Part shown: piece after piece, positions 2,939 through 59,710 of the stretch
Layout of the letters: each line of letters opens with the position of its first letter
Position numbering within the stretch: position 1 is the first letter of the stretch
NCBI GenBank assembly: GCA_026387265.1
Contig: JAPLLZ010000029.1
Coordinates: 1,064-65,063, forward strand
Origin: Candidatus Omnitrophota bacterium
GTDB taxonomy: Bacteria; Omnitrophota; Gorgyraeia; Gygaellales; Profunditerraquicolaceae
Length of the DNA: 64,000 nucleotides
Direction: 5' to 3'
Notes under the pieces: model-generated
Database searches by the model: none
Told to the model about the DNA's origin: nothing
What the model saw: only the letters and a program-made list of their open reading frames with translations
Program-made: the position numbers and the translations under genes

Positions 2939-3500
2939 GATAGGGTTTAGCCTGGTCGAGTTACTGGTAGTTACGGCTATGCTGGGGATAATCTCCCTAG
3001 CCATATTTTCAACCTTTAACAATGGTTTTAAGGTTTGGCAAAAGATAAATAAGCCTTTGGCAGAGGAGGATTTGGGCATTTTTTTTGACAAACTTGCCCA
3101 AGATTTGAGTAATTGCGTGAAGTCCAGCAGTATTCTTTTTACCGGGGATGCGAGTAGTTTCGGCGTACCGACCCTGGTGAACAGTTCAAGGCTAAAGGTA
3201 AACTCATTGGGTTTGGTGGTTTATTCATACGATCAGCAATCCGGGTTGCTATATAGAGAGCAAAAAGATTTTAGCCAGCTTTATAATCATCAGGATGCTA
3301 GCCCAGTTGTCCTGCTTAAGAATATCAGTTTTTTAAAATTTGAATATTATTATTTTGATAAGCAAGAACAGAAATATGTATGGAAAGAAGAATGGTCAGG
3401 TGCGGGTTTGCCTCTGGCAGTAAGGGTAGGTTTAAATTTAAATGATTCCTCGGAAACCGATAAGATTATCCGGACGATTAACATCCCTATCAGCGGCTAA
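2916..3500 (+). CDS. Minor pseudopilin (GspJ/PulJ-like)
   Basis: Short leader MRFIRLNR followed by IGFSLVELLVVTAMLGIISLAIF prepilin-type helix; 194 aa. Confidence 0.65.
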   Translation: MRFIRLNRIGFSLVELLVVTAMLGIISLAIFSTFNNGFKVWQKINKPLAEEDLGIFFDKLAQDLSNCVKSSSILFTGDASSFGVPTLVNSSRLKVNSLGLVVYSYDQQSGLLYREQKDFSQLYNHQDASPVVLLKNISFLKFEYYYFDKQEQKYVWKEEWSGAGLPLAVRVGLNLNDSSETDKIIRTINIPISG

Positions 3501-4464: not shown

Positions 4465-5943
4465 ATGTTTAAATTAAATATTAATAAATTAAAATTTTTG
4501 TCCGCGCTAGCTAATCAAGAATTTGTTGGGATTAATTTTAGCGGGAATAATTTAAAAATTTCTCACGTTAAAGTCTCTCCAAGCAAGAAGGAAATAGTCA
4601 ATCTCTTAAATTTAGATGTTACTGGGCTTAGTGATCTTGATATTACTAAGAATATTCAGGTTGCTATTGGTGCGCTTAAAGGAAAAAAGATTGAAGTCAT
4701 TGATATCGTTCCGACGCAACTGGTGATTACAAAAAATATTGAAATTCCTTCTATTGAAAAGAAGGAGATTAAAGAGATCCTTAATTTGCAGGCAGGTAGG
4801 CATACTCCTTATTCACGGGAAGAAATAATTGTTGATTATGTTGAAATAGGCACTTATAAACATAGTTATACTAAGGTACTTTTAGTGATTGTTGCCCGCA
4901 GCGTCTTAAAGCGGCATTATGAAATATTAGACCGTGCAGGTTTTAGATTAAAGAGAGCGCTCTTAGCTTCTGAAGGGCTGGCCTTATCTGTTTCTAAAAC
5001 CTTAAGGCTGGAGATGGATAATGTCCCGGTTAATATATTGCATGTCGATGAAAACTTTACAGATTTTAGTATTATTCTTAAAAATAAGGTAATTTTTATC
5101 CGTTCTATCCCCATTGGTACCTTTCAGTTAAAGAATGAAAAAGAAGTTTATCAGCTAAAATTTGTAGATGAGCTTAAACGGTCTTTGGAGGCTTACTTGG
5201 GAGGGGATATTGAGATAAGTCCGAATATGTTAATTCTAACCGGGGCAGGTGAGGATCTTAAAGAAATTGAAAGCTTGTTGAATAAAACAATGCACCTGCC
5301 GGTAAAGATTTTGTCTTATGCCAGTATTTTTAACATTTCAGAGTTGGCTAAAGGAACGATATCTAAAGCTAAGCAGGTATCTTTTTTTGATGTTATTGCG
5401 CCGATTCTTAATTGCCAGGAGATGAAAATAGACCTTATCCCGGAAGAAGCCAGGGTACGCCGGTCTATCGAAGAGAGAGGTAAAGATCTGATTAAAACAG
5501 GTATTTTCATTTTAACCATTTTTATCGCTACCTTTTTTATACTGGCTAGTAAGATTTATTTTAAAGGTGCGCAGTTAAGTAAGCTCGATAGTAAGTATGC
5601 GGTAATTAACCAAGAAGCACAAAAACTAGAGAAAGATCTCTTGAAGGTCGGCTTAGTCAAGAATTATCTGGTTAATCGAGGCTATACTTTAGAGATTTTA
5701 ACGGAGTTGCATGGTTTGGTTTCTGAGGATATAGAGCTTAGCGAGATTCGTTATGACGCAGATAAATTTTCTGTAAAGGGAAGCGCGGATGCAATGAGTT
5801 CAGTTTTTTCTTTTGTTGACCGCATGGAAAAATCAAAATATTTTAAAGAGGTTAAAACCAGATATACCGCTAAGCGTAAAGATGGTTTAAGGGATTATAC
5901 AGATTTTGAAGTCATTGCATTAATGGAAAGGCCGCAGGATTGA
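4465..5943 (+). CDS. PilM-PilN fusion (GspL-equivalent assembly protein)
   Basis: 492 aa: N-terminal roughly 330-aa actin-like PilM-type domain, TM helix IFILTIFIATFFILASKIYF, then a PilN-like periplasmic domain. Confidence 0.7.
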   Translation: MFKLNINKLKFLSALANQEFVGINFSGNNLKISHVKVSPSKKEIVNLLNLDVTGLSDLDITKNIQVAIGALKGKKIEVIDIVPTQLVITKNIEIPSIEKKEIKEILNLQAGRHTPYSREEIIVDYVEIGTYKHSYTKVLLVIVARSVLKRHYEILDRAGFRLKRALLASEGLALSVSKTLRLEMDNVPVNILHVDENFTDFSIILKNKVIFIRSIPIGTFQLKNEKEVYQLKFVDELKRSLEAYLGGDIEISPNMLILTGAGEDLKEIESLLNKTMHLPVKILSYASIFNISELAKGTISKAKQVSFFDVIAPILNCQEMKIDLIPEEARVRRSIEERGKDLIKTGIFILTIFIATFFILASKIYFKGAQLSKLDSKYAVINQEAQKLEKDLLKVGLVKNYLVNRGYTLEILTELHGLVSEDIELSEIRYDADKFSVKGSADAMSSVFSFVDRMEKSKYFKEVKTRYTAKRKDGLRDYTDFEVIALMERPQD

Positions 5944-6509
5944 TGAAATTGCTTAATGTGCAGATGCTCCAAGTATTCTTGGGGCGTTTATCAAAAAAAG
6001 ATAGAACAATTTTCTATGTTATTGTTGCTATTGTTTCGTTATTAATACTGGACCGGGCGATTATTTCTCCCGTATTTTCAAAAATCTGCTCGTTAAATAA
6101 AGAAATTCAGGATAAACAGGCGACGATTAAAAAGAACCTGCGGATACTGACACAGAAGGACAAAATCCTGGCGCAGAGTTCTAAGTATAGTTCTTTTTTA
6201 GGTGATTCCCAAATGACTGAGGATGAGCAGGTAACTGCGGTTTTAAAAGAGCTGGAAAGCTTAGCAAGTAAAAGTTCAGTATATCTGATTGATATGAAGC
6301 CGGCCGGGGCTAAAGGATCAGGTTCTTCAAAAAAGATTTACGTAAACTTAAATTGCGAAGCTCAGATGGAACAATTGGTTGATTTTATGTATAATATGGA
6401 GAATTCCAGCAACCTGATTTCTATTGAAAAATATCAACTTACTCCTAAAGCAAAAGAATCAAGCGTGGCAAAATGCAGTATATCGGTGTATAAAGTAGTT
6501 GCGCTATAA
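5943..6509 (+). CDS. PilO/GspM-like bitopic assembly protein
   Basis: ATG 5943 overlaps the upstream stop (TGATG); N-terminal TM IFYVIVAIVSLLILDRAIISPVF, coiled-coil segment, small C-terminal domain; operon position after pilMN. Confidence 0.5.
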   Translation: MKLLNVQMLQVFLGRLSKKDRTIFYVIVAIVSLLILDRAIISPVFSKICSLNKEIQDKQATIKKNLRILTQKDKILAQSSKYSSFLGDSQMTEDEQVTAVLKELESLASKSSVYLIDMKPAGAKGSGSSKKIYVNLNCEAQMEQLVDFMYNMENSSNLISIEKYQLTPKAKESSVAKCSISVYKVVAL

Positions 6510-15191: not shown

Positions 15192-16403
15192 ATGTTTTCA
15201 GAATTATGGCTTAGCCAAAGATACCTAAGGGCAGGCAAGAAGGAAAAAATTATCTCGATTACCGCGTTAATTTCCATAATCGGGATTGCCATTGGGGTAA
15301 TGGTTTTAATCGTGGTGATTTCAGTAATGAGCGGGTTTGACCGGTTTCTTGAAGATAAGATGGTGGGGACTAATTCTCACTTGTCGCTGGAGTTTTATAA
15401 TGGCGCCAGGAATTCAGACAGAGTAATTGACAAGCTAAAAACTTTTTCTTACGTAGAAGGGGCGTCTCCTTTTATTGACGGACAGGCCCTGGTGAAGACC
15501 GGTAAGTCGATTTTCGGGGTTCAGGTGCGTGGTATTGATCCAAAGCTGCAGATGGAAACATCTAAGCTTGATGAATATTTAAAATCCGGCAGCTATGATT
15601 TGACGGGTAATGAAGTGGCATTAGGCGGTGAATTGGCTTTACGCTTAGGCTTGGAGGTAGGCGGGATTTTAAGCTTGGTTTCTCCAGTTTCTTTAGCGAA
15701 AACTGATTTTTATGTTAAGGGAATTTTTAATAGCGGAATGTATCTTTATGATTCCAGCTTAGTTTTGACTAGTATCCAGGGAGCGCAGGATTTCTATAAA
15801 ATGCCGGATACAGTCAGTGGCGTTGCCGTGCGCGTCCGGGATATTTATAAAGTTGAAAATATCAAAGAGAAATTGTACCGGGACTTAACCGGGATTGGCC
15901 CATATCTGGTGCGTACCTGGATAGACGCCAATAAGAATTTTTTGGAAGCGTTGAAGCTTGAAAAAATTGTGATGTTTATTGTAGTCACCATGACTACGGT
16001 AGTAGCGGCATTTGGTATTGTGAGCACTTTGATTATGTCGGTAATGAGCAGGATTAAGGATATTGGTATTTTACGTTCTGTCGGAGCCAGGACTAAAAGT
16101 ATTCTGCAGATTTTTATTTTTCAGGGTATGGCGATTGGTATAACCGGAATATTTTTAGGGTTGAGTGCAGGGGTGAGCCTGGCGCTTTCGTTAGATAAGG
16201 TAGTAGATATTATATCTAAAATTATCGGTAGAAGCCTGATTCCCAAGGATATTTATTATTTTGACCGGATTCCGGTGAATATTAATGTCGGCGACGTAAC
16301 GGTTATTGTAATTTCTGCTTTGTTGATAACTTTGGCGGCCAGTATCTATCCGGCATATTATGCCAGCCGTATAATCCCCAGCGAGGCAGTCCGGCATGAG
16401 TGA
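15192..16403 (+). CDS. lolE: Lipoprotein-releasing ABC permease (LolC/LolE family)
   Basis: 403 aa, FtsX-like 4-TM permease with large periplasmic loop; N-terminus LSQRYLRAGKKEK...; followed by lolD. Confidence 0.8.
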   Translation: MFSELWLSQRYLRAGKKEKIISITALISIIGIAIGVMVLIVVISVMSGFDRFLEDKMVGTNSHLSLEFYNGARNSDRVIDKLKTFSYVEGASPFIDGQALVKTGKSIFGVQVRGIDPKLQMETSKLDEYLKSGSYDLTGNEVALGGELALRLGLEVGGILSLVSPVSLAKTDFYVKGIFNSGMYLYDSSLVLTSIQGAQDFYKMPDTVSGVAVRVRDIYKVENIKEKLYRDLTGIGPYLVRTWIDANKNFLEALKLEKIVMFIVVTMTTVVAAFGIVSTLIMSVMSRIKDIGILRSVGARTKSILQIFIFQGMAIGITGIFLGLSAGVSLALSLDKVVDIISKIIGRSLIPKDIYYFDRIPVNINVGDVTVIVISALLITLAASIYPAYYASRIIPSEAVRHE

Positions 16404-17094
16404 AGAAATAATTAAAGTCAACTCGATTTGTAAGAGTTATCAGGATAACTTAACTAACCTGGAAGTATTAAAAAATATTAATTTTTCTGTTTTGGCGGGT
16501 GAATTCTTGGTAATTCAGGGGCCAAGCGGCGCAGGAAAGTCGACGCTTTTACATATTTTAGGCGGTTTGGATAATCCGACCCAAGGGAAAGTTTATTTTC
16601 AAGGAGCGGATATTTATGCCATAGATGAGAATAAGCGTTCTGCTTTGCGCAATGAGAAAATAGGTTTTGTTTTTCAGTTTTTTCATCTTTTGCCGGAGTT
16701 AAATGCTTTAGAGAATGTTTTGTTACCGGGAATTTTAAAATCCTGGTGGGATAGGAAAAAAAGCTTAGGCAAGGCGCTTGAACTTTTAGAAAGATTAGGA
16801 TTATCCTCCAGGTTAAAACATCGGCCGGGTGCTTTAAGCGGCGGAGAACAACAGAGAGTGGCGATTGCCCGGGCGTTAGTCAATTGTCCGCAGCTTTTAC
16901 TTTGTGATGAGCCTACGGGTAATTTAGATTCAGAGAATGGTAAAAATATCCTGCAGCTTTTAATTGAGCTTAACCGGGCTCAAAAGATTACCATTGTGAT
17001 GGTTACTCATGATAAAGATATTGCCTGTGGAGCCGGAAGAATTATTCATTTGAAGGATGGGGTTATTCTAGGAAATAATAATGATAAACACTAA
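16396..17094 (+). CDS. lolD: Lipoprotein-releasing ABC ATPase
   Basis: Walker A GPSGAGKST, signature LSGGEQQRVAIARAL, Walker B LLLCDEPTGNLD; overlaps lolE by 8 nt. Confidence 0.85.
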   Translation: MSEEIIKVNSICKSYQDNLTNLEVLKNINFSVLAGEFLVIQGPSGAGKSTLLHILGGLDNPTQGKVYFQGADIYAIDENKRSALRNEKIGFVFQFFHLLPELNALENVLLPGILKSWWDRKKSLGKALELLERLGLSSRLKHRPGALSGGEQQRVAIARALVNCPQLLLCDEPTGNLDSENGKNILQLLIELNRAQKITIVMVTHDKDIACGAGRIIHLKDGVILGNNNDKH

Positions 17095-17217
17095 ACCCGA
17101 AAAACGAAACTCTAAACAAACTCAAAATTCTAAACTCGAAACTCAAAACATTGGTTTAAAAATTTGAGTTTTGGATTTAGGATTTGTTTAGGATTTAGAG
17201 TTTAGTGTTTAGAGTTT
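17089..17217. repeat. Inverted heptamer-array element, copy 1
   Basis: Left arm of CNCTAAA/CTCGAAA-type heptamers (17089-17147), 15-nt centre, right arm of TTTAGRR/TTTGAG-type heptamers (17163-17217); begins in the last lolD codons, ends 4 nt before the ilvE SD. Confidence 0.7.
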
Positions 17218-17233
17218 ATTAAAGGAGGTAAGC

Positions 17234-18103
17234 ATGCAGATTTACATTAACGGGAAATTTTATGATAAAGAGAACGCTAAGGTATCTGTATTTGATCATG
17301 GGTTGCTTTATGGGGATGGTGTTTTTGAGGGGATCCGTTCTTATAATCGCCGTGTGTTTAAATTAAGCGAGCATATTGATCGGCTGCTGGAATCTGCCCA
17401 GAGTATTATGTTAAAGGTCCCGTTGACTAAAGAACAGTTAATTAAAGCGGTAACCCAAACATTAAAAGCTAATAAGCTAGATAATGCTTATATCCGTCTG
17501 GTGGTTACCCGTGGGGTAGGTGATTTAGGGCTTGATCCGCGTAAATGTAATCAAGGCTCGACAATTATTGTTATCGCCGATAAAATCGCTTTGTATCCAG
17601 AGAAACTTTATCGTGAGGGCTTAACGATTGTGACTGTGCCTACCGTGCGTAATTTGCCGGAAGCACTTAACCCCCAGATTAAGTCTTTGAATTACTTAAA
17701 TAATATTCTGGCTAAGATGGAAGCGGCTAATGCTGGATGCGATGAAGCAATTATGTTAGATTCACTAGGGTATGTGGCAGAGTGTACTGGAGACAATATT
17801 TTTGTGGTTAAGCATGGCCAGCTTTACACTCCTCCGCAGTGTATGGGGACTTTGCGCGGAATCACCCGTGATTCCATACTGGAGATTGCCCGCAGGGATA
17901 AAATTCCGGCACACGAACATGTAATTACGCGGCATGAAGTTTATATTTCAGATGAGTGTTTCTTAAGCGGTACGGCAGCAGAGCTCATCCCGGTAGTTAA
18001 GGTGGATGGCCGGATTATTGGCCAGGGTAAGCCGGGTAAGCTTACTTTGAGCCTGATGAAAAAATTCAAAGAGTTAACCGTTAAAGATGGAGTAAAGTAT
18101 TAA
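17234..18103 (+). CDS. ilvE: Branched-chain amino acid aminotransferase (class IV PLP enzyme)
   Basis: 289 aa; VFDHGLLYGDGVFEGIRSY and class IV fold motifs. Confidence 0.85.
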   Translation: MQIYINGKFYDKENAKVSVFDHGLLYGDGVFEGIRSYNRRVFKLSEHIDRLLESAQSIMLKVPLTKEQLIKAVTQTLKANKLDNAYIRLVVTRGVGDLGLDPRKCNQGSTIIVIADKIALYPEKLYREGLTIVTVPTVRNLPEALNPQIKSLNYLNNILAKMEAANAGCDEAIMLDSLGYVAECTGDNIFVVKHGQLYTPPQCMGTLRGITRDSILEIARRDKIPAHEHVITRHEVYISDECFLSGTAAELIPVVKVDGRIIGQGKPGKLTLSLMKKFKELTVKDGVKY

Positions 18104-28296: not shown

Positions 28297-28980
28297 ATGG
28301 TTTATCTGATTAACATTTTAATTATATTGCTGGCGATTGCAGTAATTAAACTGGTGTTAATTTCTATCTTTTTCTATGCTGATATTAGGGCGGCGCAAAA
28401 AAGAGATCCTGCGGCGAAAAGTTTCTTAGAGATAATTTTACTTTATCCCGGGCTGCACGCTTTAGTTTATTATCGGATTGCGCATTTATTCTATGGAATA
28501 AGGTTATTCTTTTTAGCGCGCCTGTTATCTCAGGCCGGTAGGTTTTTTACCGGTATTGAAATTCATCCGGGAGCTAAAATCGGTAAACGTTTTTTTATTG
28601 ATCATGGGCTAGGAGTAGTGATTGGAGAGACGGCGGTTGTGGGTGATGATGTCCTGCTTTATCAGGGATCTACCTTGGGTGGAACCGGTATTGTTCAGGG
28701 TAAGCGCCATCCTACGGTTGGTAATAATGTGGTTATTGGAGCCGGAGCCAAAGTTTTGGGCAACATTGTTATCGGAGATAATTCTTATATTGGAGCAAAC
28801 GCAGTAGTGGTGAAAGATGTTCCGCCGAATTCTACAGTAGTGGGTGTTCCCGGTAGGATTACAAAACAGGATGGTAAGAAGATGGATGTCAGCCTGGATC
28901 ATGCGCGTATACTTGATCCGATTATGCAGACGATTGAAGAACTGCAGGATAGAGTTAAAGAATTAGAAAAGAATAAGTAA
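28297..28980 (+). CDS. cysE: Serine O-acetyltransferase
   Basis: [21 protein letters not shown], hexapeptide-repeat C-domain. ATG 28297 has a strong SD, giving an unusual hydrophobic roughly 25-aa N-terminal extension; GTG 28354 would give a canonical-length protein. Confidence 0.85.
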
Positions 28981-29113
28981 ACTCTAAACACGAAACCCTA
29001 AACTCTAAACAAACTCGAAACACTAAATCCGAATTTAAGAACTTACTTCTGAGTAATATTTGAGTTTCGGATTTAGGATTTGTTTAGGATTTCGAGTTTC
29101 GAATTTAGGATTT
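28979..29113. repeat. Inverted heptamer-array element, copy 2
   Basis: Left arm AAACTCTAAACACGAAACCCTAAACTCTAAACAAACTCGAAACACTAAATCCGAA, variable centre, right arm TTTGAGTTTCGGATTTAGGATTTGTTTAGGATTTCGAGTTTCGAATTTAGGATTT; fills the cysE-cysS spacer. Confidence 0.7.
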
Positions 29114-29120
29114 AATAATT

Positions 29121-30629
29121 ATGTCTATTTTTATATATAATTCTCTCACCAGAAAAAAAGAAGAATTTATTCCCTTAAAACCGAAGGAAATTAAGATGTA
29201 TGTTTGCGGACCGACGGTTTATGACGAGGCGCATATCGGCCATGCCCGCAGCGCCTATGTATTTGACGTGATTCGGAGGTATTTAACGTATAAGGGGCTC
29301 GAGGTTAAATTTGTGAGAAACGTAACCGATGTTGACGATAAGATTATTAATAAGGCGAAAAATGAATTTAAGGGAGAGGATTTAAATACGGCGGTGGGCA
29401 AAGTCTCCAATAAGTATTTAGATCTTTACCATGATGATATGAAAAGCCTGGGGATTCTTGAGCCGGATATTGAGCCGAAGGCAACCGAATATGTCGGCAA
29501 CAATAAGATGCAGGAATTTATCCAGCAGCTGATTGAACAAGATTGTGCCTATGTTGCTGATGGAGATGTGTATTTTGATATTAAAAAAGCCAAGGGTTAC
29601 GGAAAACTATCTAATCAGGCGATAGAAAAGATGGAATCCGGAGCTAGGATTGCTTTGGGCGAGAAAAAGAAAGACCCATTAGATTTTGCATTATGGAAAG
29701 CAGCTAAGCCGGGAGAGCCTGCCTGGGATAGCCCCTGGGGAAAGGGAAGGCCGGGTTGGCATATTGAATGTTCGGTAATGAGCTCGGATATTCTTGGGGA
29801 CGAATTTGATATTCATGGCGGTGGAATCGACCTTATTTTCCCGCATCATGAAAATGAGATTGCTCAATCTGAAGGCGCAGGTAAGACGTTCGCTCATTAT
29901 TGGATACATCATGGTTTATTGACAATCAATGCTCAAAAGATGTCCAAGTCATTAGGTAACTTTATTACTATAAAAGACGTGATAAATAAATATTCTTCCG
30001 ATGTTTTAAAGATATTTTATTTGCAGGCACATTATTCTAGTCCGGTAGATTTCACTTGGGAAAGGCTTGAAGAGGCTCACAAGGCAATTCAAAGATTTGA
30101 AATACTTTTCTTTAGAATGGATCAAGCGAGAAAAATCGGTATGACTTCTTCAGTGCAAACAGCTAATTTTATCGAAAAAAATAAAAACAATTTTATTAAA
30201 GCTATGGATGATAATTTTAATACACCAGATGCTTTAGCTAGTCTTTTCGATTTAGTTAATGATACTAACAAGTTTATAGATACAGAGAAACAAACTGCTA
30301 ATTATACAGAAATAGTAAATGAAGCAGAGAGGGTAATTATTGAATTAGGAAATATTTTTGGTCTTGAACTTAAGTCTATTCAAATATCCACTAGAGCATT
30401 CAATTTAGAATTATCCGAACCTAGCGGTAGTAGTAGTTCTAGTAGTAGTTCTAGTAGTAGTTCAAGTAGTGAGGAAATTGCAGAAATCAAATCGTTAATT
30501 GTTGACCGAAACGAAGCAAGGAAGAGTAGGGATTTTAAAAAATCAGACGAAATTCGAAAAACACTAGAAGATAAAGGTATAATTTTAGAAGACACTAAAG
30601 ACGGTACAATCTGGCGTAGAAAGCTATGA
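29121..30629 (+). CDS. cysS: Cysteinyl-tRNA synthetase
   Basis: Class I HIGH (AHIGHARS) and KMSKS (KMSKSLGN) motifs, C-terminal ...LEDTKDGTIWRRK; 502 aa including a Ser14 linker insert. Confidence 0.95.
   Translation: MSIFIYNSLTRKKEEFIPLKPKEIKMYVCGPTVYDEAHIGHARSAYVFDVIRRYLTYKGLEVKFVRNVTDVDDKIINKAKNEFKGEDLNTAVGKVSNKYLDLYHDDMKSLGILEPDIEPKATEYVGNNKMQEFIQQLIEQDCAYVADGDVYFDIKKAKGYGKLSNQAIEKMESGARIALGEKKKDPLDFALWKAAKPGEPAWDSPWGKGRPGWHIECSVMSSDILGDEFDIHGGGIDLIFPHHENEIAQSEGAGKTFAHYWIHHGLLTINAQKMSKSLGNFITIKDVINKYSSDVLKIFYLQAHYSSPVDFTWERLEEAHKAIQRFEILFFRMDQARKIGMTSSVQTANFIEKNKNNFIKAMDDNFNTPDALASLFDLVNDTNKFIDTEKQTANYTEIVNEAERVIIELGNIFGLELKSIQISTRAFNLELSEPSGSSSSSSSSSSSSSSEEIAEIKSLIVDRNEARKSRDFKKSDEIRKTLEDKGIILEDTKDGTIWRRKL
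30429..30470 (+). repeat. In-frame 12-nt tandem repeat encoding Ser14 within cysS
   Basis: AGTAGTAGTTCT x2 + AGTAGTAGTTCA + AGTAGT = 14 consecutive Ser codons. Confidence 0.9.
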
Positions 30630-57492: not shown

Positions 57493-57573
57493 TGCGGGAG
57501 GAGGGAGTTGAACCCTCAAGGGTTACCCCACACGCTTCTGAGACGTGCGCGTATGCCATTCCGCCACTCCCGC
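57493..57573 (-). tRNA. tRNA-Leu (anticodon CAG)
   Basis: Hand-folded: acceptor GCGGGAG/CTCCCGC, D arm GCG-GAATGGCATA-CGC, anticodon arm CACGT-CTCAGAA-GCGTG, 13-nt variable arm, T arm GAGGG-TTCAACT-CCCTC, discriminator A; CCA not encoded. Confidence 0.9.
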
Positions 57574-59289: not shown

Positions 59290-59710
59290 GGGGGTGAAAG
59301 GGTTCGACTTAAGATATGTCGCTTAAGAGCAGCATGCCGCGGATGTAAGGTTAGCCGCGTTAACAATCCTTGCACAATTCAAACGCAAACACAAAAACAC
59401 CAGTGTTCACAAACCGATTGGCAGCGTTACCGGGTTTTCAGCCGGTAGCATTTCCAGCTGGTTGCGTACCAGTCTTAGCGTTTAATTAAACGCTAAGCCT
59501 CTAGCTGTCCTGCCTACGGGATAGATTAGAGCTCAAGTAGGATAGTCCCGGCGGTTAGCCTTCCAAACCGGGGCAAAATCGAAAAGGCTGCATCTTGCAA
59601 ATCCTGCCGGGTAGGAGTTGCAAGGTTAAGAATAAATTACCAGGCTAAGCATGTAGCGGTTTTTAGGTGATTACTTAAGGACGGCGGTCCGATTCCGCCC
59701 ACCTCCACCA
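59290..59710 (+). ncRNA. ssrA: tmRNA (SsrA)
   Basis: 5' GGGGGTGAAAGGGTTCGAC; 3' tRNA-like end GGACGGCGGTCCGATTCCGCCCACCTCCACCA. The acceptor pairs GGGGGTG/CACCTCC with the G3-U pair. Tag ORF 59385-59489 has its stop in the loop of the CTTAGCGTTT/AAACGCTAAG hairpin. Confidence 0.9.

Follow-up and report, generated by a model that had tools for sequence, protein, structure and literature searches.

Heptad-armed palindromes between cistrons in an Omnitrophota genome and their probable relation to PF05635-carrying intervening sequences

Two co-directional genes of a Candidatus Omnitrophota bacterium, one for a lolD-like ABC transporter ATPase and the other for a class IV aminotransferase (ilvE), are separated by a palindrome of phased seven-nucleotide units, and the locus raises the question of what kind of DNA this is and whether it belongs to the genes beside it. 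It lies in a stretch of 64,000 nucleotides (assembly GCA_026387265.1, contig JAPLLZ010000029.1, positions 1,064 to 65,063; hereafter the window, numbered from its first letter). An earlier note, made from the letters alone, had described an element of about 130 bp composed of inverted arrays of degenerate heptamers in this spacer; the sequence is as it described, and a period-7 array was detected there. Three points go beyond that note: the element belongs to the dispersed repeats and is polymorphic for insertion, has no connection with ilvE as such, and is a relative of the intervening sequence (IVS) elements with a PF05635 gene. The family to which it belongs has a recognizable architecture and an intercistronic position, varies in presence and absence, occurs also with a PF05635 (23S_rRNA_IVP; hereafter IVP) gene between its arms, and has counterparts of like architecture at other PF05635 genes. 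We consider it probable that the window element is a non-autonomous miniature, lacking an open reading frame (ORF), of a selfish palindromic element of the IVS type, whose full-length form encloses a 120-aa gene for a PF05635 protein, a four-helix bundle.

Two copies in the window and a family across phyla

The element in the lolD–ilvE spacer, copy A, is a heptad-armed palindrome of 134 nt to which no strand is assigned (17085–17218, a correction of the 17089–17217 first proposed), with nhmmer arm matches at 17086–17140 (+) and 17163–17217 (−). Its outer 5' arm (17085–17119, +) reads TAAACAC TAAACCC GAAAAAC GAAACTC TAAACAA, that is, four heptads and an AAACAA phase-shift unit, and its outer 3' arm (17184–17218, +) reads TTGTTTA GGATTTA GAGTTTA GTGTTTA GAGTTTA. 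The interior (17120–17183), which is the place of the PF05635 ORF in full-length relatives, consists of four inner heptads on the left (17120–17149), a loop at about 17150–17162, and three inner heptads on the right (17163–17183). The unequal heptamer numbers ascribed earlier to the arms are a property of this inner part, the outer parts being identical in architecture. An inverted-repeat search returned arms of 66 nt (17084–17149 and 17154–17219) with 73% complementarity, in line with the long imperfect hairpin that had been proposed.

Copy A starts within the last codons of the upstream gene (16396–17094, +), whose TAA stop (17092–17094) falls within heptad 2, and it ends 4 nt ahead of the Shine-Dalgarno sequence AGGAGG (17223–17228) that precedes the ATG of ilvE at 17234 (17234–18103, +); both ends had been placed in this way before. 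Tandem Repeats Finder detected period-7 arrays at only two places in the window, copy A and 28978–29114, and every other spacer of the window, taken as a control, was without one. This second locus, to which the earlier note had also alluded, is copy B of the same element (137 nt, no strand), between a serine acetyltransferase gene (cysE) and cysS, and is 84% identical to copy A over the ungapped right arm. The TAA stop of the serine acetyltransferase gene (28978–28980) makes up the first three bases of copy B, and the copy ends 6 nt before the cysS ATG (29121). RNA of positions 17080–17235 folded at −40.9 kcal/mol on the + strand (z −5.6), a value equalled by 0 of 200 shuffles, and at −35.7 kcal/mol on the − strand (z −4.8); for copy B the − strand was the better folder (−45.2, z −6.3, vs −38.4, z −4.1, on the + strand). 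Copy A is a real feature and more than a product of chance.

The earlier note had named confinement of the pattern to these two loci as a refuting condition, and this condition clearly does not hold. GTDB species, each represented by a single genome, were scanned with a degenerate pattern of 21 nt (TTTNGRRTTTGTTTAGRRTTT, covering an 11-nt irregularity common to both arms), which gave at least 120 matching stretches, and a nhmmer profile search found arm matches in 112 of 120 loci among the matches listed, usually as a convergent arm pair with roughly 10–60 nt of inner heptads and loop between. The same element is thereby placed at 112 or more loci and, among the matches listed, in more than 20 phyla, as well as on IMG/VR contigs. 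Host labels included Omnitrophota, many Patescibacteria lineages, Saccharibacteria, Planctomycetota, Deltaproteobacteria/Desulfobacteria (Desulfobacterota), Nitrospirota, Bacteroidota, Ignavibacteria, Fibrobacterota, WOR-3, Aminicenantia, Dehalococcoidia, Elusimicrobia, Bdellovibrio, and Chlorobiaceae, together with a Verrucomicrobiota single-cell genome, an 8.6-Mb Victivallales chromosome, and one Thermoplasmata metagenome-assembled genome (MAG). Mis-binning cannot account for this host range, because several matches lie on contigs of 0.5–2.6 Mb. Many of the IMG/VR contigs, nominally viral (L121–L164, e.g., L143, L135, and L154), hold one to four miniature copies each.

The 52 cleanest arm pairs share one architecture, namely a variable first base, four AAAYYCT heptads, AAACAA (a 4-nt phase shift in the arm), two to four inner heptads, a loop of 5–147 nt, and the mirrored arm. 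Within each heptad AAA, C6, and T7 are almost invariant and the two middle positions are only C or T; the AAA...TTT ends are sharp, with unrelated flanks and a variable base beside them. Across the family, AATATCT is frequent as the third heptad, and TA is found at both the beginning and the end of many copies. These features bear on whether a heptamer microsatellite could have expanded in place by slippage, its inversion arising by chance or by local hairpin-primed duplication. Variation in heptad number among related elements, including Coxiella strains, would suit such an origin, as would the tandem heptamer arrays known in cyanobacteria and Beggiatoaceae (PMC4679880). It is already contradicted, though, by the conservation of non-periodic architecture across phyla (exactly four outer heptads, the AAACAA shift, and the recurrent third heptad), and the sharp ends and the 85–88% identity that copy A shows with the arms of an element of another sample in which IVP is encoded speak against it as well; we regard slippage as extremely improbable. 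Two candidate features were also discarded. All-frame stop codons did not qualify as a strict feature, since TAA is near-invariant only in heptads 1 and 4 and heptads 2 and 3 are often GAA, and they are kept as a tendency; that the AC-rich arm precedes the other in the sense direction is trivial, because either strand of such a palindrome reads that way.

Where ORFs were called on both sides (39 copies), the flanking genes were co-directional in 36 cases, divergent in 3, and convergent in 0. In these copies mostly 0–20 nt separate the element from the stop codon upstream and from the start codon downstream, and the upstream ORF was often terminated by a TAA within the first heptads. The element lives inside operon transcripts and is not terminator-like. 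ORF clustering around the 120 loci gave no recurrent neighbor other than generic families (ABC ATPases, glycosyltransferases, and epimerases). For annotation, such hairpins ahead of ilvE, cysS, carB, and other genes are not to be read as gene-specific regulators.

The lolD–ilvE junction in relatives

The ilvE protein of the window has a 100% identical counterpart in a Candidatus Omnitrophica MAG and many relatives at 86–93% identity, and four syntenic loci of relatives (L165, L166, L167, and L168; 11–21 kb each) were compared at the junction. In L165 (ilvE 93% identical) the lolD–ilvE spacer is 26 nt long and empty. L166 (ilvE 91%) carries a variant element at the same site, with the same terminal heptads (TAAATCC...TTTAGGGTTTA) and different inner ones (TATAAGC/GCTTATA), and has a second copy of this variant after ilvE; the two lie at L166 9877–10001 and 10870–10978, with TAAATCC...TTTAGRGTTTA ends and inner TATAAGC/CKGTAAG facing GCTTATA/CTTACMG. 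Unrelated palindromes occupy the junction in L167 and L168. The lolD–ilvE junction thus shows insertion polymorphism at a tolerated position, as is characteristic of DNA that is mobile or can at least be replaced. On the reading preferred here, regulation of ilvE or cysS is no specific function of the element.

The reading frame at the junction also differs. When window 17070–17094 is set against L166 9850–9880, the lolD-like ORF of L166 ends ...AATAATAAATGA, and a 1-nt difference shifts the original lolD TGA out of frame in the window, where the TAA of the element now terminates the ORF.

PF05635 genes and their repeat arrays

In three differently labelled MAGs (L063, L029, and L099), the loop of the element holds an ORF of 120 aa, frameshifted in L099. 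The L063 and L029 ORFs are members of PF05635 (23S_rRNA_IVP, Avd-like; E 6e-15 and 8e-13) and are 64% identical to each other. A scan of a metagenome collection with an alignment of IVP proteins of this L063/L029/L099 type found 80 loci at 64–83% identity, 71 of them with room on both sides; a heptad arm directly adjoined the IVP gene in 68 of these 71 evaluable loci, and both arms were present under strict distance limits in 42. The only ORF ever found between heptad arms was PF05635. The full-length unit measures about 460–480 nt. Its 5' part reads N AAATCCT AAATCCT AATTTCT AAATCCT AAACAA ATTNAA, then ATG ACC AAA ATT CAA AAT TCA and onward to the stop codon, and its 3' part reads TTTTGAACATTTGAATTTTGGATTTTGGTAT TGTTTAGG ATTTAGA TATTAGG ATTTAGG ATTT; its arms comprise four AAAYYCT heptads, AAACAA, and two or three inner heptads.

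Full-length units occupy the same type of site as the miniature copies, 0–8 nt past a stop codon and 2–23 nt ahead of the next start, and the IVP ORF is evidently expressed by read-through, because it is co-oriented with both neighbors in 20 of 25 cases. One such unit (L248), from another sample than copy A, aligns with it without gaps at 35 of 41 positions (17085–17125) and 51 of 58 positions (17161–17218), or 85–88%; its IVP frame is uninterrupted over 119 codons, the first aligned codon being ATT and not ATG. Motifs from the inner stem of full-length units are overrepresented among the miniature copies (ATGAC, 18 vs 5.2 expected; AACAT, 25 vs 12.4) and support common descent of the two forms. 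From these comparisons we conclude that the window copies are most probably ORF-less derivatives of the arms-plus-IVP unit. The same ORF-boundary motifs were tried as orientation marks for miniature copies and rejected: being inner-stem motifs, they occur about equally in both orientations and give no polarity. No rRNA was found in 20 IVP-element loci. Two full-length elements lie directly downstream of a tRNA gene (L169 164–249 and L220 15–102), another transcribed context.

The other PF05635 genes that were sampled have the same kind of surroundings, all 10 of 10 being flanked by arrays of a short repeat unit specific to the subfamily. A Patescibacteria MAG (L067) has GTTAAAA four times upstream and TTTTAAC four times downstream, and an IMG/VR contig (L139) has GTAGTCT four times upstream and ACTACAG four times downstream. 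A tblastn search of plasmids with PF05635 returned 26 records, mostly from cultured cyanobacteria, and in all eight that were inspected arrays adjoin the PF05635 gene: GTAGGGA/TCCCTAC in Nostoc edaphicum (L251), GGTGACA/TGTCACC in Anabaena sp. 90 (L252), GGAGATA/TATCTCC in Picosynechococcus (L254), and 8-mers in the GC-rich Gemmatirosa. Pseudanabaena galeata is an exception to the inverted-arm rule, with direct arrays of about 15 AAAAGCT upstream and about 9 AAAAGCC downstream (L250 440–600 and 961–1065), and the arrays of Calothrix sp. PCC 7716 and Nostoc PCC 7120 are not clearly inverted. On plasmid AZO_p2 of Azospirillum lipoferum 4B, a 23S rRNA gene (RF02541, 914 bits) contains a helix-45 IVS with a PF05635 ORF (L256 536–575 and 970–1005), the stem of which consists of CAGAGGA CGGATGA CAGAGGA CGGAGGA facing complementary heptads; the gene table of the plasmid collection has no feature over this IVS stretch. 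Heptads per arm range from 3 to 15 in these other subfamilies.

The closest known kind of element is the 23S rRNA IVS with an S23p/PF05635 ORF, as in Leptospira, Coxiella burnetii, and A. lipoferum. In Coxiella, three or four tandem GACAGAT heptamers, varying in number among strains, immediately precede the S23p ORF on its upstream side, with RNase III cleavage at the first of these repeats (Warrier et al., PMC4990558); in the literature searched, heptamers beside an IVS ORF were previously noted for Coxiella only. The window copies and their relatives resemble rRNA IVSs in having a long stem of terminal inverted repeats, an optional 120-aa PF05635 ORF in the loop (in the relatives of the window copies), tandem heptamers as a stem beside the ORF (GACAGAT in Coxiella, PMC4990558; CAGAGGA/CGGAGGA in Azospirillum), and a sporadic distribution suggestive of horizontal transfer without a transposase. 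They differ in lying between protein-coding cistrons and not in a 23S rRNA helix (9, 25, or 45), in being ORF-less and multi-copy, and in belonging to a sequence family common to more than 20 phyla; among rRNA IVSs, the PF05635 ORF occurs in the large ones only.

The short tandemly repeated repetitive (STRR) sequences of cyanobacteria are another close comparison, along with the TAACTGA repeats of Beggiatoaceae, Cyanobacteria, and Bacteroidetes (PMC4679880) and the heptanucleotide families of Geobacter metallireducens (PMC2700814). These too comprise 2–15 heptamers in intergenic positions, frequently stop a few bases short of a start codon, and have a patchy spread across phyla; they are mostly direct arrays with no linked gene, whereas the window family is inverted and tied to a PF05635 gene. 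The STRR-like heptads at PF05635 genes on cyanobacterial plasmids indicate that the two kinds may be connected. Such arrays accompany PF05635 genes that have as neighbors the pair cas6 and cas4, the pair cmr2 and cmr3, or genes for ribonucleotide reductase subunits (L250, L252, L254, and L251). The listing of 23S_rRNA_IVP as CRISPR-associated (PMC3936711) may be explained by selfish intercistronic insertion, and PF05635 genes between cas genes are best annotated as probable selfish insertions.

What the family adds to earlier knowledge is that heptad-armed elements, with or without an IVP gene, colonize spacers between protein-coding cistrons and have given rise to gene-less miniatures, and that one sequence family is common to Omnitrophota, Patescibacteria, Planctomycetota, Desulfobacterota, and many other phyla. 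Known for more than 30 years, rRNA IVSs and the S23p/IVP gene have, to our knowledge, been assigned neither a function nor a mechanism of mobility, and bacterial tandem heptamer repeats are likewise unexplained. Our literature search, incomplete in coverage, found no account of intercistronic heptad-armed IVP elements, of their miniatures, or of a general link between PF05635 and repeat arrays, and an earlier description is possible; searches with the heptad strings returned primer matches only. The pairing of heptad type with IVP subfamily yields the testable hypothesis that the protein binds the repeats. More broadly, and with considerable doubt, PF05635 proteins and inverted 7-nt arrays might together form one ubiquitous, unrecognized class of selfish elements residing in transcripts (rRNA helices and operon spacers), in which an oligomer recognizes its own heptads and which spreads across phyla, possibly via excised RNA. 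If this were true, a single selfish class would explain rRNA IVSs, at least part of the cyanobacterial STRR-like heptamers, the CRISPR association of 23S_rRNA_IVP, and the miniature derivatives.

Predicted transcripts, pairing, and mobility

Both forms insert between the stop of one gene and the start of the next in an operon, and are therefore transcribed with the host operon. In such a transcript, the arms would pair into an imperfect stem of roughly 55 bp, and RNase III may cut this stem as it does those of rRNA IVSs, uncoupling the upstream and downstream cistrons without polarity; in full-length copies, the same cleavage would free the IVP message. RNase III excision is documented for rRNA IVSs only, and for the window element it is proposed by analogy. 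Diversity-generating retroelements have an accessory protein, Avd, which forms a pentameric barrel of four-helix bundles and binds nucleic acid. PF05635 is homologous to Avd (PMC10053308), and this homology, together with a repeat unit that varies with protein subfamily, suggests that the heptads could be recognition units of an IVP oligomer, and IVP supplied in trans might then maintain or mobilize miniature copies. The closest solved structure to IVP is 2RLD (E 1e-12), deposited with five chains. Unlike in Avd systems, no reverse transcriptase, template repeat, or variable repeat was found adjoining the elements studied. Because TAA/TAG triplets recur at 7-nt intervals and the last heptads contain AGGA, the host would plausibly tolerate intercistronic insertion.

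Several results weigh against this explanation, the first group of them concerning the hairpin. In 37 aligned copies, 79.5% of cells were standard pairs in the symmetric register 0, which is the correct one because pairing falls to 53–56% when the partner is slid by 1 nt. When partner arms were shuffled, however, all 500 of 500 shuffles paired at least as well as the own arms (82.0 ± 0.5%), and the covariation score of 0.086 was reached or exceeded by all 500 (0.126 ± 0.008). Independent permutation of the arms gave z = −3.0, own arms pairing worse than shuffled ones, and full-length elements followed the same trend without covariation (z = −2.0). With direction taken from the flanking genes, 24 of 36 copies folded better as antisense than as sense RNA (p = 0.015). 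Beyond the hairpin, there was no PF05635 gene in the window or in the four syntenic loci of relatives; direct flanking repeats of 2–5 nt (target-site duplication) were no commoner in 43 clean copies than in shuffled flanks; and no transposase recurred in about 0.9 Mb around the elements. A model with one pentamer subunit per heptad was also tried and fits poorly, given the 3 to 15 heptads per arm, and Coxiella apparently does not produce its S23p protein (PMC4990558).

At the variable positions, each of the four Y:R combinations is as frequent as independence of the arms would predict. Pairing follows from both arms matching one motif, and nothing suggests that a + strand RNA structure is selected for. 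There may even be avoidance of perfect complementarity, own arms being less complementary at the variable positions than arms from different copies. The earlier reading of a + strand RNA hairpin is accordingly retained as to the long stem, which can form, and finds no support as to its selection; the slight folding advantage of the + strand noted before applies to copy A and to neither copy B nor the family as a whole.

These results bear directly on whether the element is a host structure, that is, a cis-regulatory or mRNA-stabilizing device selected for differential expression in the lolD–ilvE and cysE–cysS operons, of the repetitive extragenic palindromic (REP) or enterobacterial repetitive intergenic consensus (ERIC) type, or a terminator, attenuator, or RNase site. 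It does sit in transcribed intercistronic spacers, as ERIC and REP elements do, and it folds strongly compared with shuffles. We nevertheless consider a host structure unlikely, since a close relative lacks the element in the orthologous spacer and further relatives have other palindromes there, the same element stands ahead of unrelated genes in many phyla, the arms do not covary, and the sense strand is not the better folder. There were 0 terminator-like sites at either window locus and no promoter-like sites above chance at either, 0 of 39 copies lay between convergent genes, and neither window locus has the short GC-rich stem and T run of an intrinsic terminator. Rfam returned nothing for the element at gathering score and, at a permissive threshold, only sub-threshold matches to miRNA-precursor hairpins. 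Terminator and promoter readings were rejected on these site counts, which do not exceed chance, and attC/integron and CRISPR readings on the sequence itself. Relative to REP elements and REPINs with their RAYT, which are built on GC-rich palindromes of 20–40 bp, the arms are AT-rich heptads without a GTAG/CGTC tag, and no RAYT-like neighbor was seen around the 120 loci, whole genomes not having been searched.

Motif-level conservation without covariation between arms, and variable positions that are pyrimidine-only on one strand, would also be expected if the heptad arrays were bound as double-stranded DNA by a chromosomal protein, be it nucleoid-associated or gyrase- or IHF-like, in the manner of bacterial interspersed mosaic elements, and acted at the level of DNA and not RNA. 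Such binding is very unlikely to be the explanation: near-exclusive placement in operons and an IVP ORF that runs in the direction of the host genes suggest that transcription is needed, the sequence is common to phyla with different nucleoid proteins, and the repeat unit changes with the IVP subfamily, which ties recognition to the element's own protein and not to a host protein. Apart from the question of a chromosomal binder, the array of protein-binding sites that the earlier note had offered as an alternative survives in a modified form, the conservation of AAA, C, and T with free YY positions being suited to recognition by a protein.

A classical MITE (a miniature transposable element with inverted repeats) would instead be a deletion derivative of an insertion sequence with a DDE transposase (e.g., IS630/Tc1-like, with a TA target), its heptad arms serving as transposase-bound terminal inverted repeats. 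With MITEs, REPINs (PMC3116915), ERIC, and Correia elements the family shares an imperfect palindrome of about 130 bp that is non-coding, intergenic, often within transcription units, and insertion-polymorphic; it is small and multi-copy with long inverted termini, and the TA with which many copies begin and end could be a target. It is set apart from all of these by its lack of a target-site duplication and of a transposase, by phased-heptad arms, and by a sequence kept across phyla and not species-specific. The base beside AAA/TTT is variable, with no direct repeat of ≥2 nt flanking the 43 clean copies, and the sole ORF type found between arms is PF05635 and not a transposase. A MITE origin is, in our judgment, quite unlikely, and an ORF-less miniature of the IVS type remains the reading that we prefer.

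Other repeats were seen in the same material. The relatives compared at the lolD–ilvE junction hold at least three further intergenic palindromic families (GGGGACGGTTCTC...GAGAACCGTCCCC; TTTCCCCTCGCGGGAGCTCGGGG...GGAGGCTGGGGAAAAATGAGGAGG; GTCATTGCGAGGAGC...GCTCGCAATGAC), all in intercistronic spacers; the positions of such palindromes are L165 16569–16644; L166 2699–2787, 3749–4003, and 16566–16716; L167 6433–6554, 9895–10001, 10870–10928, and 15732–15784; and L168 6313–6433. In Saccharibacteria and Patescibacteria MAGs, a hairpin repeat, GTCATTCCCGCGnnnGCGGGAATC, is nested in the loop of heptad elements or adjoins them (L009 about 1780–1850 and 5390–5440; L016 about 6330–6400; L067 about 3440–3500); it resembles the dRS3 repeat of Neisseria. 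Within the window, a 12-nt tandem repeat (TAGTAGTAGTTC, 3.6 copies, 96% matches) lies at 30428–30470, in the 3' part of the cysS ORF (29121–30629). At gathering score, Rfam matched nothing in the window but a tmRNA gene (59290–59710, +, 165 bits) and a tRNA gene (57493–57573, −).

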